A stretch of 14,846 nt of DNA from a virus (lineage: Duplodnaviria; Heunggongvirae; Uroviricota; Caudoviricetes). Shown one piece after another: positions 1,421-9,253 of this stretch (position 1 is the stretch's first letter; each line of letters starts with the position of its first letter). Under the pieces are notes generated by a model. That model searched no databases. It saw only the letters and a list, made by a program, of their open reading frames with translations, and was not told the DNA's origin. Location of the stretch: IMG/VR virus record IMGVR_UViG_2703718772_000005. The stretch is one strand, 5' to 3'. The position numbers were made by a program, and so were the translations under genes.

Positions 1421-2380
1421 ATGAAAAAAAGTGTCATCGCTGGCGTCTTTATTGCTCTGTCATTTACCACGTGTTCAGCTATCGCGAACAGCCTTGCATT
1501 ATCATTAGCAAATGATGATGCAGGGAAGTTTCAACCAATACTTAATGATATTTATGGCAATAAACATGAAAACAGAGATGATTACTCACAAGGCTTATTT
1601 CTGGGATATAGCCACGATATCTCAGACTCGAGCCAATTATCTCTCCATATTGCGCAAGATATTTACTCTCCATCAGGCAGTAATAAAAGACACAACACAG
1701 CTGTAACTGGAGACAGAGCTTTTAGTGCATACACTCACACTGGTATTGAATGGAACTCCCTTGCGAATGACTGGATTCGCTATCGATTAGGTACTGACAT
1801 AGGTGTTGTTGGCCCCGACGCAGGCGGTCAGAAAGTACAAAATAAAGCTCATGAGATTATTGGGGCAGAAAAATATCATGCATGGGATGATCAAATAGAG
1901 AATCGCTACGGTTATACTGTAAAAGGGATGCTATCCATGACACCAAGTATGGATATTTTAGGTGCTAATGTTGGATTATACCCTGAAGTTTCTGCTGTTA
2001 CTGGAAACTTATTTCAATATGTAGCATATGGCGCAACCATTGCCATTGGTAATGATAAAACCTTCAATTCGGATAATGGCTTTGGTCTGCTGGCTCCCCG
2101 TGGTTTAATGCATATGTCCGATACAAGCGGATTCAAATACAAGATTTTTGCAGGTATGGAAAGACGAGATGTCAATCGCAACTATACTCTCGAAGGAAAA
2201 ACAATACAGACGAAACAAACAACAGTATCGCTAAACAAAACTGTTGATGAATATCAAGTTGGCGCAACAATTGGGTATGCACCTGTAGCCTTCACACTAG
2301 CATTTAATAAAGTAACATCAGAATTCAAGACAGGGGATGACTATTCATTTATAAATGGAGCAATCACCTTCTTTTTTTAA
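1421..2380 (+). CDS. lpxR: Outer-membrane beta-barrel, LpxR-family lipid A 3'-O-deacylase-like (prophage cargo gene)
   Basis: 319 aa, same length as Salmonella LpxR as I recall it. N-terminal signal peptide with AIA cleavage motif; C-terminal Phe (ITFFF) typical of OM barrels. If cleaved after Ala22, mature positions 9, 10, 34, 122 are N, D, S, H, matching my recollection of the reported LpxR active-site residues N9, D10, T34, H122. AT-rich and on the opposite strand to flanking phage genes. Confidence 0.7.
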   Translation: MKKSVIAGVFIALSFTTCSAIANSLALSLANDDAGKFQPILNDIYGNKHENRDDYSQGLFLGYSHDISDSSQLSLHIAQDIYSPSGSNKRHNTAVTGDRAFSAYTHTGIEWNSLANDWIRYRLGTDIGVVGPDAGGQKVQNKAHEIIGAEKYHAWDDQIENRYGYTVKGMLSMTPSMDILGANVGLYPEVSAVTGNLFQYVAYGATIAIGNDKTFNSDNGFGLLAPRGLMHMSDTSGFKYKIFAGMERRDVNRNYTLEGKTIQTKQTTVSLNKTVDEYQVGATIGYAPVAFTLAFNKVTSEFKTGDDYSFINGAITFFF

Positions 2381-5096: not shown

Positions 5097-5303
5097 TCAA
5101 CTCACAAAACTCCACGCCATTTTTGCTACAGCGACAGGCATAACACCGATAATCACCCACAGGAAAATGCTACCGAAAAGCACACCCACCAGGTCTTTAC
5201 CTTCGCCTACCAACCGGACAAAACTGCTGGCAACAACAATGAACGTCGCCACCATCCACATAGCACCGAGAATCCTCAATGCAGAGAAAATTAACTCAGC
5301 CAC
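5097..5303 (-). CDS. Small hydrophobic protein, two predicted transmembrane segments (68 aa)
   Basis: GTG start with a very strong SD (GGGGGAGGG, 6-nt spacing). Two about 25-residue hydrophobic stretches separated by a short EGKD loop. Lies directly downstream of an intrinsic terminator. Confidence 0.4.
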   Translation of the reverse strand: MAELIFSALRILGAMWMVATFIVVASSFVRLVGEGKDLVGVLFGSIFLWVIIGVMPVAVAKMAWSFVS

Positions 5304-5318
5304 GATTTACCCTCCCCC

Positions 5319-5350
5319 AAATAAAAAGGCCTGCGATTACCAGCAGGCCT
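5319..5350 (-). terminator. Intrinsic terminator between the 96-aa and 68-aa genes
   Basis: Minus-strand RNA AGGCCUGC-UGGUAAUC-GCAGGCCU (8-bp GC-rich stem) followed by UUUUAUUU; 26 nt downstream of the 96-aa gene stop. Confidence 0.55.
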
Positions 5351-5694: not shown

Positions 5695-6288
5695 ACGCAT
5701 CTGAAACTGCAGACTGCGCAGGATTCAGACAATGGATTTTCGGCGCTTGAACAGGCGCTGCTGCGGTATATCGCCGCCGGTCTTGGCGTTTCCTACGAAC
5801 AGTTGTCCCGGGATTACTCGAAGGTCAGTTATTCAAGTGCCCGCGCCTCCGCCAATGAGTCGTGGCGCTATTTTATGGGACGACGAAAATTTATTGCGTC
5901 CCGGCTGGCCACGCAGATGTTTTCCTGCTGGCTGGAAGAGGCACTTCTTCGGGGGATTATTCGTCCGCCACGGGCGCGTTTTGATTTTTATCAGGCGCGA
6001 TCAGCCTGGTCACGGGCTGAGTGGATTGGAGCCGGAAGAATGGCCATTGACGGGCTCAAGGAAGTCCAGGAATCAGTGATGCGCATTGAGGCCGGACTGA
6101 GCACGTATGAGAAAGAGCTGGCGCTGATGGGCGAGGATTATCAGGACATTTTCCGCCAGCAGGTCAGGGAATCTGCTGAGCGACAAAAAGCCGGACTCTC
6201 ACGTCCGGTGTGGATAGCGCAGGCGTATGAGCAGCAGATAGCGGAGAGTCGCAGGCCGGAAGAGGAGACAACACCACGTGAGACGTAA
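5695..6288 (+). pseudogene. B: Portal protein B, 5'-truncated remnant (C-terminal about 195 codons only)
   Basis: Open frame from stop at 5692-5694 to 6288, no ATG before the TTG at 5803. Sits immediately upstream of and overlapping gene C, as the portal gene does in lambda; about 1 kb of expected upstream coding is replaced by minus-strand nin-module genes. Confidence 0.7.
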
Positions 6289-7783
6289 TCTTTCACACAT
6301 TATTGCCGCAGCATTCAATGAACCGCTGCTTCTGGAGCCCGCCTATGCGCGGGTTTTCTTTTGCGCGCTCGGGCGCGAGATGGGGGCATCAAGTCTTTCG
6401 GTACCACAACAGCAGGTACAGTTTGATGCTCCCGGAATGCTGGCTGAAACGGACGAGTACATGGCCGGAGGTAAACGACCGGCCCGTGTTTACCGGGTGG
6501 TGAACGGTATTGCTGTACTGCCGGTGACCGGCACGCTGGTGCACCGGCTGGGGGGTATGCGGCCATTTTCCGGAATGACAGGCTATGACGGCATTGTCGC
6601 CTGTCTTCAGCAGGCAATGGCGGATAGCCAGGTGCGGGGCGTACTGCTGGACATTGACAGTCCGGGCGGGCAGGCCGCCGGCGCGTTTGACTGCGCTGAC
6701 ATGATTTACCGCCTCCGTCAGCAGAAGCCGGTCTGGGCACTGTGCAATGACACGGCCTGCTCTGCAGCCATGCTGCTGGCGTCGGCCTGCTCCCGACGGC
6801 TGGTTACCCAGACATCCCGTATCGGCTCCATTGGCGTGATGATGAGCCATGTCAGCTATGCCGGTCATCTGGCGCAGGCCGGTGTTGATATCACGCTGAT
6901 TTACTCAGGGGCGCACAAGGTGGATGGCAATCAGTTTGAAGCGTTGCCGGCAGAGGTTCGCCAGGACATGCAACAGCGCATTGATGCGGCGCGCCGGATG
7001 TTTGCTGAAAAAGTAGCGATGTATACCGGTCTGTCTGTTGATGCTGTCACGGGAACAGAGGCCGCCGTTTTTGAAGGTCAGTCCGGCATTGAGGCCGGGC
7101 TGGCGGATGAATTAATCAATGCGTCGGATGCCATCAGTGTGATGGCCACGGCGCTGAACAGTAATGTCAGAGGAGGCACTATGCCGCAATTAACTGCAAC
7201 GGAAGCCGCCGCGCAGGAGAACCAGCGAGTGATGGGGATCCTGACATGCCAGGAAGCGAAAGGACGTGAACAGCTTGCCACGATGCTGGCAGGACAACAG
7301 GGCATGAGCGTTGAACAGGCCCGGGCGATTCTGGCCGCGGCGGCACCACAGCAGCCGGTGGCATCCGCGCAGAGTGAAGCCGATCGCATTATGGCGTGTG
7401 AAGAAGCGAAAGGTCGTGAACAACTGGCGGCAACGCTGGCGGCGATGCCGGAGATGACGGTGGAAAAAGCCCGCCCGATCCTGGCTGCTTCACCGCAGGC
7501 GGATGCCGGACCCTCACTCCGTGATCAGATCATGGCACTGGATGAGGCAAAAGGGGCTGAGGCGCAGGCTGAACAGCTGGCTGCCTGCCCGGGAATGACT
7601 GTGGAGAGCGCCCGGGCTGTGCTGGCTGCGGGATCAGGTAAGGCAGAACCGGTCTCTGCATCCACAACCGCCATGTTTGAACGCATCATGGCGAACCATT
7701 CACCGGCAGCGGTACAGGGTGGCGTGCCACAGACGTCAGCAGACGGTGATGCGGACGTGAAAATGCTCATGGCCATGCCATGA
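6278..7783 (+). CDS. C: Head maturation protease/scaffold protein C (lambda gpC-like)
   Basis: 501 aa. N-terminal two-thirds strongly resemble lambda gpC (FNEPL.LEPAYARVFFCAL, GIAVLPV.GTLV, GMTGY.GI, VWAL.ND, SIGVMM.H, ITLIYSG.HKVDGN). GTG start with SD GAGGAG upstream; overlaps the portal stop. Confidence 0.9.
   Translation: MRRNLSHIIAAAFNEPLLLEPAYARVFFCALGREMGASSLSVPQQQVQFDAPGMLAETDEYMAGGKRPARVYRVVNGIAVLPVTGTLVHRLGGMRPFSGMTGYDGIVACLQQAMADSQVRGVLLDIDSPGGQAAGAFDCADMIYRLRQQKPVWALCNDTACSAAMLLASACSRRLVTQTSRIGSIGVMMSHVSYAGHLAQAGVDITLIYSGAHKVDGNQFEALPAEVRQDMQQRIDAARRMFAEKVAMYTGLSVDAVTGTEAAVFEGQSGIEAGLADELINASDAISVMATALNSNVRGGTMPQLTATEAAAQENQRVMGILTCQEAKGREQLATMLAGQQGMSVEQARAILAAAAPQQPVASAQSEADRIMACEEAKGREQLAATLAAMPEMTVEKARPILAASPQADAGPSLRDQIMALDEAKGAEAQAEQLAACPGMTVESARAVLAAGSGKAEPVSASTTAMFERIMANHSPAAVQGGVPQTSADGDADVKMLMAMP
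7181..7783 (+). CDS. Nu3: Nu3-like scaffolding protein from an internal in-frame start within C
   Basis: In-frame ATG at 7181 preceded by AGGAGG (7171-7176). In lambda the scaffold Nu3 is translated from an internal start in the C frame (established knowledge); the exact start here is inferred. Confidence 0.5.
   Translation: MPQLTATEAAAQENQRVMGILTCQEAKGREQLATMLAGQQGMSVEQARAILAAAAPQQPVASAQSEADRIMACEEAKGREQLAATLAAMPEMTVEKARPILAASPQADAGPSLRDQIMALDEAKGAEAQAEQLAACPGMTVESARAVLAAGSGKAEPVSASTTAMFERIMANHSPAAVQGGVPQTSADGDADVKMLMAMP
7226..7631 (+). repeat. Three diverged tandem repeats (about 36-40 codons each) in the C/Nu3 scaffold domain
   Basis: Protein-level repeats RVMGILTCQEAKGREQLATMLAGQQGMSVEQARAILAAA / RIMACEEAKGREQLAATLAAMPEMTVEKARPILAAS / QIMALDEAKGAEAQAEQLAACPGMTVESARAVLAAG, starting near 7226, 7381 and 7523. 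DNA copies are diverged, so the duplications are old. Confidence 0.7.
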
Positions 7784-7819
7784 AGCCAGTGCTGACCATC
7801 AACAGGAGGTTTTTACAAT

Positions 7820-8167
7820 ATGGTGACGAAAACTATCACTGAACAGCGTGCGGAAATACGTATTTTTGCCGGTAATGATCCGGCTCATACCGCCACAGGC
7901 AGCAGCGGGATTTCCTCGGCAACACCGGCACTGACGCCCCTGATGCTGGATGAGGCCACCGGGAAACTGGTGGTCTGGGACGGACAAAAAGCCGGTAGTG
8001 CGGTTGGCATACTGGTACTGCCGCTTGAAGGCACAGAGACGGCGCTGACCTATTACAAGTCGGGGACCTTTGCGACGGAGGCAATCCGCTGGCCTGAAAG
8101 TGTGGATGAACACAAAAAGGCCAACGCCTTTGCCGGCAGTGCCCTGAGTCACGCGGCGCTGCCGTAA
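7820..8167 (+). CDS. D: Head decoration protein D (gpD-like)
   Basis: 115 aa, similar to lambda gpD (DPAHTAT, TPLMLD, KLV.WDG, AVGIL, YYKSGTF, TEAIRWPE, AFAG). SD AGGAGG upstream. Confidence 0.9.
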   Translation: MVTKTITEQRAEIRIFAGNDPAHTATGSSGISSATPALTPLMLDEATGKLVVWDGQKAGSAVGILVLPLEGTETALTYYKSGTFATEAIRWPESVDEHKKANAFAGSALSHAALP

Positions 8168-8224: not shown

Positions 8225-9253
8225 ATGGGATTGTTTACGACCCGCCAGTTACTCGGTTATACCGAACAAAAAGTGAAATTTCGTGCGCTGTTTCTGGAGC
8301 TGTTTTTCCGCCGTACGGTGAATTTCCATACCGAAGAGGTGATGCTGGACAAAATTACCGGAAAAACGCCGGTGGCGGCCTATGTTTCCCCGGTTGTTGA
8401 AGGAAAAGTGCTGCGTCATCGTGGTGGTGAAACCCGCGTGTTACGTCCGGGCTACGTCAAGCCGAAACACGAATTTAATTACCAGCAGGCGGTTGAGCGT
8501 CTTCCCGGTGAAGATCCGGCTCAGCTGAACGACCCGGCCTACCGTCGTCTGCGTATCATCACTGATAACCTCAAACAGGAAGAGCACGCCATTGTCCAGG
8601 TGGAAGAAATGCAGGCGGTGAATGCCGTGCTGTATGGCAAATACACGATGGAAGGAGACCAGTTCGAGAAAATTGAGGTCGATTTTGGCAGGTCGACGAA
8701 GAATAACATCACTCAGGGTAGTGGTAAGGAGTGGTCAAAACAGGATCGTGACACGTTCGATCCTACACATGATCTTGACCTCTACTGCGACCAGGCCAGC
8801 GGTCTTGTGAATATTGCCATTATGGACGGTACCGTCTGGCGTCTGCTGAATGGCTTTAAATTGTTCCGCGAAAAACTGGATACCCGTCGCGGCTCTAATT
8901 CGCAACTCGAAACAGCGGTGAAAGACCTGGGCGCGGTGGTGTCCTTCAAAGGGTATTACGGCGATCTGGCCATTGTGGTGGCAAAAACGTCTTATGTGGC
9001 AGAGGACGGTACCGAAAAACGTTATCTGCCTGAGGGCTCGCTGGTCCTGGGGAATACGGCAGCAGAGGGCATTCGTTGCTATGGTGCCATTCAGGATGCG
9101 CAGGCGTTGTCCGAAGGTGTGGTGGCCTCTTCCCGTTATCCGAAACACTGGCTGACGGTAGGGGATCCCGCCCGTGAATTTACCATGACGCAGTCCGCGC
9201 CGCTGATGGTGTTGCCGGACCCGGATGAGTTTGTGGTGGTACAGGTGAAATAA
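8225..9253 (+). CDS. E: Major capsid protein E (gpE-like)
   Basis: 342 aa, extensive similarity to lambda gpE along its length (YVSP.V.G, PGYVKPKHE, DPAYRR.RII, VEEMQAV.AVL.GKYTM, NNITQ, TRRGSNS.LETAVKDLG, YPK.W.T.GDPAREFTM.QSAPLM, DPDEFV.VQ). SD AAGGAA upstream. Confidence 0.95.
   Translation: MGLFTTRQLLGYTEQKVKFRALFLELFFRRTVNFHTEEVMLDKITGKTPVAAYVSPVVEGKVLRHRGGETRVLRPGYVKPKHEFNYQQAVERLPGEDPAQLNDPAYRRLRIITDNLKQEEHAIVQVEEMQAVNAVLYGKYTMEGDQFEKIEVDFGRSTKNNITQGSGKEWSKQDRDTFDPTHDLDLYCDQASGLVNIAIMDGTVWRLLNGFKLFREKLDTRRGSNSQLETAVKDLGAVVSFKGYYGDLAIVVAKTSYVAEDGTEKRYLPEGSLVLGNTAAEGIRCYGAIQDAQALSEGVVASSRYPKHWLTVGDPAREFTMTQSAPLMVLPDPDEFVVVQVK

Follow-up and report, generated by a model that had tools for sequence, protein, structure and literature searches.

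Within a 14,846-nucleotide (nt) stretch of tailed-phage DNA (IMG/VR virus record IMGVR_UViG_2703718772_000005; the whole stretch is called the window in the following), the reading frame at 6278-7783 encodes a homologue of the phage lambda C protein (gpC), which combines a head maturation protease with a scaffold domain. The C-terminal part of this protein, which would also be produced separately from a nested in-frame start, contains three copies of a unit of about 40 amino acids (aa). We consider it very likely that the locus is a lambda C/Nu3 nested gene pair of the phage 21 type, located in a defective lambdoid prophage of Escherichia coli O111. The gene pair consists of the following features, given in window coordinates:

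6278-7783, plus strand: counterpart of phage 21 gene 5 and lambda C, coding for 501 aa in which a head maturation protease is joined to a scaffold domain; it starts with GTG, some 10 nt downstream of GAGGAG
6506-7156, plus strand: S49 (SppA-like) serine protease domain, assigned from Pfam, Protein Data Bank (PDB) matches and the invariant Ser162
7169-7176, plus strand: putative Shine-Dalgarno sequence AGAGGAGG of the nested scaffold gene; it also encodes Arg-Gly-Gly and is the ribosome-binding site (RBS) in both phage 21 records
7181-7783, plus strand: putative nested in-frame scaffold gene, counterpart of phage 21 gene 6 and lambda Nu3; 200 aa
7220-7348, plus strand: unit 1 (Tri1 box), NQRVMGILTCQEAKGREQLATMLAGQQGMSVEQARAILAAAAP; the Tri1 box of M81255.1 corresponds to window 7248-7351
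7379-7507, plus strand: unit 2 (Tri box), ADRIMACEEAKGREQLAATLAAMPEMTVEKARPILAASPQADA; the Tri box of M81255.1 corresponds to window 7388-7498
7520-7648, plus strand: unit 3 (Tri3 box), RDQIMALDEAKGAEAQAEQLAACPGMTVESARAVLAAGSGKAE; the Tri3 box of M81255.1 corresponds to window 7529-7642
7649-7780, plus strand: C-terminal tail common to protease and scaffold (..FERIMANHSPAAVQGG..DVKMLMAMP); it corresponds in the alignment to the tail of lambda Nu3 and has a low predicted local distance difference test score (pLDDT 44-59)

The product of 6278-7783 is annotated in RefSeq as an S49 family peptidase (WP_001254039.1). A Pfam search assigned Peptidase_S49 (PF01343) to residues 146-293 (E = 3.7e-35, 121.6 bits at a cut-off of 24.9), and a PDB search matched residues 77-290 to the SppA structures 3rst and 4kwb (E = 4e-16), the protease being the only part of the protein with solved relatives. 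Ser162 is invariant across five phage proteins and aligns with Ser166 of lambda, which reportedly has the catalytic role (Medina et al. 2010). PHROGs placed the region in the head maturation protease and head scaffolding families, and within the scaffold part, three stretches gave matches to PHROG 8399 ('head scaffolding protein'). A first-pass annotation of the window, made from the letters and their open reading frames, had called the gene a gpC homologue with a triplicated repeat of about 40 aa in its scaffold part. The protease match together with an identity of 52% to lambda gpC bears out the assignment of the gene, and the repeat was recovered in the unit alignments.

The scaffold part is built from three modules of about 40 aa, connected by linkers rich in proline, glutamine and alanine and followed by a tail of about 45 aa. 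In order, the units comprise residues 315-357 (NQRVMGILTCQEAKGREQLATMLAGQQGMSVEQARAILAAA), 368-410 (ADRIMACEEAKGREQLAATLAAMPEMTVEKARPILAAS) and 415-457 (RDQIMALDEAKGAEAQAEQLAACPGMTVESARAVLAAGSGK), and their consensus, DxIMALxEAKGRExLAxxLAxxPGMTVExAxxxLAAAP, agrees with the motif written down in the first-pass annotation. Unit 1 carries an MGIL.C signature, which is also present in the single unit of lambda. Local alignments between units reached scores of 82-105 with 19-23 identical residues out of 34-36 (56-64%), compared to a mean of 21-24 +/- 4-5 for 2000 composition-preserving shuffles (z = 12-20), and 17 columns are invariant across all three units. At the DNA level, the units are 56-64% identical, with different codons at 11-13 of the 19-23 identical residues. 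Tandem Repeats Finder reported no repeat in 6200-7900, and an exact-seed repeat finder returned only fragments of 12-15 nt, which are in register. The low DNA identity, the differing codons and the missing Tandem Repeats Finder match indicate that the repeat is old and maintained at the protein level. Judged from these comparisons, the repeat is genuine and kept by selection on the protein.

Behind the last unit, the motif FERIM (7676-7690, residues 467-471) forms an extra 'E/D-R-I-M' helix start comparable to those at 7379-7393 and 7520-7534, as if a fourth unit had started here and has since degenerated. The sequence ALDRLM after the single unit of lambda is the same feature, n units being flanked by n+1 short motifs.

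Phage 21 carries a closely similar gene pair. Its gp5 is 99% identical to the full protein of the window, both with 501 aa and the same GTG-started outer frame, and its gp6 is 97% identical to the scaffold part, both with 200 aa and the same nested ATG preceded by GGAGG. The three units of phage 21 are located at the same positions as in the window protein. Apart from a few substitutions, the window copy differs in its setting, a defective prophage that lacks terminase and retains only part of the portal gene. The record M81255.1 ("Bacteriophage 21 head gene operon") annotates the nested coding sequence (CDS) of gene 6 together with a putative RBS and, inside gene 6, the repeat_region features Tri1 box, Tri box and Tri3 box, labelled "function unknown; putative". 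The three copies of the unit lie at these annotated Tri box positions. Scaffold CDS and RBS are also annotated in OL657228.1, the re-sequenced phage 21. Both the triplication and the nested gene for the scaffold are therefore already known from a decades-old phage 21 annotation.

The allele is also widespread. Using thresholds of at least 90% identity and at least 80% coverage, the 603-nt scaffold segment was detected in 1865 of 5426 complete E. coli genomes (about a third). Its span was exactly 603 nt in each of the 29 full-length matches listed, which were drawn at even intervals from the ranking of the 1865 genomes, and this uniformity indicates that the unit number is stable within the lineage. 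Isolated phages with the segment are ev017, D2, 4A7, 1W, 3W and the PhiR5, PhiR12, PhiR57 and PhiR63 series. As the annotation has long been on record and the allele is very common in E. coli, the finding has little weight as a discovery. OL657228.1 additionally marks two 'CII binding sites' (TTGYN6TTGY) in the scaffold gene, corresponding to window 7186-7199 and 7420-7433 on the minus strand. The pattern occurs five times in the window with 3.3 occurrences expected by chance, so that these sites are probably meaningless pattern matches.

Lambda C/Nu3 likewise consists of S49 protease, linker, scaffold and shared C-terminus, and has the same unit motif and tail as well as GGAGG-N4-ATG at the equivalent site (5342). 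In contrast to the window protein, it possesses one unit, which follows a non-repetitive Ser/Thr/Ala-rich linker of about 50 aa. Unit counts based on a hidden Markov model (HMM) of the unit were three for gpC of the window, phage 21 and Gifsy-1, and one for lambda and phi80. In agreement with this, when the 200-aa scaffold part was compared with lambda residues 309-439 by BLASTP, three separate matches were obtained, all onto one lambda segment. The single unit in lambda accounts for the 62 residues by which the window protein (501 aa) exceeds lambda gpC (439 aa; phi80 gpC: 447 aa). Both the single lambda copy, which the first-pass annotation had given, and its estimate of about 60 additional residues thus proved correct. 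The N-terminal half of the lambda unit resembles unit 1 (10 of 15 residues), while its C-terminal half is similar to all three units (14-16 of 27) and did not discriminate in a test for a unit 1/unit 3 recombinant, which would have pointed to a loss of units from an original three. STM2605 of Gifsy-1 has three units in the same order, each nearest its positional counterpart, and the same nested start, but the identity is lower (66% overall, 56% in the scaffold part) and the C-terminal tail slightly longer.

To place these counts in a wider context, we searched 1.84 billion representative proteins with a profile built from the three window units, which yielded 458 matches at E <= 0.001. The 143 newly listed representatives contained one unit in 133 cases, two in 4 and three in 2, and representatives of at least 380 aa contained one unit in 52 of 53, typically about 50 residues from the C-terminus. 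As the word-indexed protein search gave mostly fragments, full-length unit counts were taken from genome loci. For this purpose, 25 full-length gpC genes from different species were fetched from genome contigs, the genera including Escherichia, Shigella, Trabulsiella, Providencia, Enterobacter, Kluyvera, Buttiauxella, Pluralibacter, Klebsiella, Phytobacter, Citrobacter, Kosakonia, Erwinia, Serratia, Cedecea and Pseudocitrobacter, besides an Aeromonadaceae metagenome-assembled genome (MAG). Three units were present in 5 genes (Escherichia, Shigella, E. albertii, Trabulsiella and Providencia) and one in the other 20. On these counts, one unit is the norm among the relatives. Lambda-type gpC genes with near-identical match statistics were also encountered in assemblies of Neobacillus, Kitasatospora, Shewanella, Pseudomonas, Oceanobacillus, Leeuwenhoekiella, an Akkermansia MAG, Paenibacillus and Enterococcus (loci L017-L025, L043, L044, L049 and L051-L054), often on contigs of about 48.4 kilobases (kb) or of very low coverage. 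These genes in unrelated assemblies almost certainly represent contamination with lambda control DNA.

Judged from the retrieved sequences, the natural unit number ranges from one to four. Four units are found in a protein of an E. coli prophage (P0028; L068 1-1043), which has a normal head-gene context, and P0078 is a frameshifted copy of this four-unit form. In P0021 unit 2 is cleanly missing, P0020 contains a hybrid of unit 1 and unit 2, as unequal recombination would give, and in P0015 unit 2 is mostly deleted. Unequal recombination between units appears to have produced the two-unit alleles P0020 and P0021. None of the variants P0028, P0021, P0020 and P0015 was found in isolated phage records. 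Among the window, Gifsy-1 and the Salmonella protein P0030, the identity is 59-82% for units that occupy the same position and 42-65% for different units. Since positional counterparts are closer to each other than to other units, the triplication is old, and by this measure it was present before the E. coli and Salmonella forms separated. In P0028, units 2-4 share 79-89% identity, which points to a recent extra duplication.

The ATG at 7181-7183 is in frame and follows AGAGGAGG with a spacer of 4 nt, and the 200-aa frame starting from it translates to the same sequence as the C-terminal part of the full-length protein. The arrangement GGAGG-N4-ATG does not vary among the window, phage 21, Gifsy-1, lambda and phi80, whereas the flanks have diverged. 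A scaffold CDS is annotated at the equivalent site in both phage 21 records (M81255.1 and OL657228.1) and in phi80 (FN582354.1). In the survey of 25 gpC genes, a Met was present at residues 300-307 in every case, although the flanking residues are variable. GGAG(G/T/A) is located exactly 4 nt 5' of this Met in 24 genes, the 25th has AAGGAAAGAGGA, and no Shine-Dalgarno sequence was found at the neighbouring Met codons of the 25 genes. The suggestion of the first-pass annotation that an in-frame ATG with a good Shine-Dalgarno sequence just before the first repeat is consistent with a Nu3-like scaffold gene is thus supported by the phage 21 and phi80 records and by the conservation of the start in 25 species.

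These data also bear on the annotation of lambda itself. In the lambda RefSeq entry (NC_001416.1) and in HK630 (JQ086376.1), nu3 starts at ATG 5132, resulting in a protein of 201 aa, whereas position 5342, the counterpart of the conserved Met, would give 131 aa. Among the 25 genes surveyed, the Met of lambda 5132 is not conserved and is without a Shine-Dalgarno sequence in the relatives. Because the Met equivalent to 5342 is conserved together with a Shine-Dalgarno sequence in 25 species and is used for phage 21 and phi80, the lambda reference start at 5132 is probably wrong, and 5342 would be the start common to the relatives. N-terminal analysis of purified lambda Nu3 is said to have placed the start at the downstream site, giving 131 aa. 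In the open-access literature we found no text on the Tri boxes or the Nu3 start. The shared internal start could guide the re-annotation of lambda-type nu3 genes.

To learn about the structure of the scaffold, models were calculated with AlphaFold2. In the model of the 200-aa scaffold, the units have pLDDT values of 73-80, linkers and tail are weak, and the predicted template modelling score (pTM) is 0.27. Unit 2 on its own, modelled from 12 aligned units, reached a pLDDT of 89.5 and a pTM of 0.68, with helices at residues 2-8, 16-23 and 30-39. Each unit is therefore predicted to form a small three-helix bundle, with flexible linkers between the units; the combination of confident units, weak linkers and a pTM of 0.27 fits beads on a string. 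The unit is probably a conserved, autonomously folding domain of lambda-family scaffolds. A Foldseek search of the whole 200-aa model against the PDB returned nothing below E = 3.7. The PDB profile search matched only de novo designed repeat proteins through the short motif 'G-x-S-x-E-Q-A', which we read as helix-cap-like; these matches were taken as chance. Helix-hairpin-helix PF00633 remained below the Pfam gathering threshold in the window protein, and neither fold nor sequence similarity to the solved coat-binding domain of the P22-type helix-turn-helix was found. P22 gp8 and the protease-scaffold pairs of herpesviruses follow a similar logic, in which a C-terminal helical element that binds coat protein tethers the scaffold inside the procapsid. 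In herpesviruses, the protease is also tethered to the inside of the procapsid, and the genes are likewise nested in frame.

Over its 14.8 kb, the window matches a prophage region of E. coli O111:H- strain 11128 (NC_013364.1) and of many other O111 genomes at 100% identity. The gene order in this region is Q, an lpxR-family gene, nin (minus strand), portal remnant, C homologue, decoration, major capsid, FI, FII and tail. The truncated portal gene overlaps the start of the C homologue, and with the decoration and major capsid genes downstream this is the position expected for a lambda C/Nu3-type gene:

7820-8167: head decoration gene, downstream of the C homologue
8225-9253: major capsid gene, 342 aa (341 in lambda)

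To the left of 5699/5700 lies the nin region on the minus strand and to the right only the C-terminal ~195 codons (the last third) of the portal gene. The head operon is severed from its usual upstream genes, and the portal remnant directly adjoins the nin region, which is inverted. Neither terminase nor W genes were found in the prophage region of the window. In the absence of terminase genes the prophage is defective; the C homologue itself is intact. In every matching O111 genome, a 1314-bp IS3-family element that the window lacks is present at 5699/5700 (NC_013364.1 862831-864144). Between the gene of the antiterminator Q and nin lies a gene for an LpxR-family lipid A deacylase (1421-2380, plus strand), which resembles cargo carried by a prophage (a moron) and could modify host lipid A. 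A direct repeat of about 2 kb upstream had been suspected from similar lengths of open reading frames and was ruled out by a self-BLAST of the window.

Several points weigh against a functional nested pair at this locus. With the terminase and most of the portal gene missing, this copy cannot build a phage alone, and because an inverted nin region lies directly next to the portal remnant and the terminase is gone, transcription of the late operon may be absent here. Furthermore, the 4 nt that separate GGAGG from ATG are close to the lower limit of usual spacers, part of the conservation of GGAGG could be due to the protein, as it also encodes the conserved Gly-Gly, and in lambda RefSeq and HK630 the annotated nu3 begins at another ATG further upstream. 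The spacer, the overlap with Gly-Gly and the lambda-type records would be in line with an ATG 7181 that is not used at all, so that only the full-length fusion is made and GGAGG is kept merely as Gly-Gly codons. We regard this as improbable. Gly-Gly can be written in 16 ways, yet all genes with a preserved Gly-Gly (20 of 25) use GGA as the first codon. GGAG is retained in four more genes without the second Gly (Gly-Val as GGAGTA or GGAGTC in three, Gly-Glu as GGAGAA in one), and the Met is present in 25 of 25 genes despite the variable flanks. In lambda, Nu3 is reportedly made as a separate protein overlapping C (Shaw and Murialdo 1980). A list in PMC10695390 gives nu3 of lambda as a scaffold gene that is essential. 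We give practically no credence to the idea that the repeats reflect compositional similarity within an Ala/Gln/Glu-rich low-complexity segment instead of duplicated modules. The region is indeed Ala-rich, and the negative Tandem Repeats Finder result and the modest nucleotide identity of the units would fit such a segment, but the highest score among the shuffles was 46-51 compared with 82-105 observed. The 17 invariant columns and the confident prediction of the unit as a folded domain also argue against it, and shuffle scores, the 458 proteins found by the unit profile and the positional counterparts of every unit in Salmonella phages ruled it out.

For the nested protease-scaffold pair of the phage 21 type, which we favour, lambda C and Nu3 suggest how the two products would work together. 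The short product would be made in excess as a scaffold and would form the procapsid together with portal and major capsid protein, the shared C-terminal part would carry the protease into the shell, and the protease would clear the scaffold before DNA packaging. Interaction data for lambda include Nu3-B, Nu3-C, Nu3-Nu3 and Nu3-E contacts (PMC3224144). The module may serve as an interaction element with the capsid protein, the portal or itself, and three modules on flexible linkers would then result in a multivalent scaffold and not in a shell of different size. The triplication may have arisen by tandem duplication, and unequal recombination may still alter the number. We tentatively propose, as one possibility, that scaffold and protease grip the major capsid protein or the portal through the three-helix unit they share and that its copy number would be an evolvable valency, tuning how avidly and in what stoichiometry the scaffold is incorporated. 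A less likely account is that the extra units are neutral passengers, a duplication tolerated in a disordered scaffold. This is in agreement with the natural variants of one to four units, with lambda working with one unit, and with the title of Medina et al. (2011), which describes lambda gpNu3 as intrinsically disordered. Against neutrality, the full motif is kept in all three units, which points to purifying selection since before the Escherichia, Salmonella and Providencia forms diverged, and synonymous sites are scrambled while the residues are kept. Moreover, the span of 603 nt was uniform in the 29 full-length matches listed for E. coli, and the two- and four-unit forms were found in no isolated phage record. 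Finally, the first-pass annotation had suggested that procapsid assembly could depend on the number of repeats. Scaffolds set capsid size elsewhere, as in the case of SaPI1 CpmB versus 80alpha (PMC5644958), and the unit number might in the same way determine capsid geometry, three units building a shell unlike that of lambda. We consider this very improbable, as the genome sizes of three-unit (42.9-54.4 kb) and one-unit phage records (44.4-50.5 kb) overlap and give no sign that the unit number sets capsid size, and as the major capsid protein (342 versus 341 aa) and the decoration protein match those of lambda in length. Lambda-21 hybrids carrying the head genes of phage 21 package DNA of lambda length. 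Shell size is thus probably not set by the number of units.

If the unit number does act as a valency, the natural alleles with one, two, three and four units would represent a ready series for studying valency control of procapsid nucleation. This natural unit-number series would be useful for investigating how scaffolds of the lambda type engage capsid and portal proteins.

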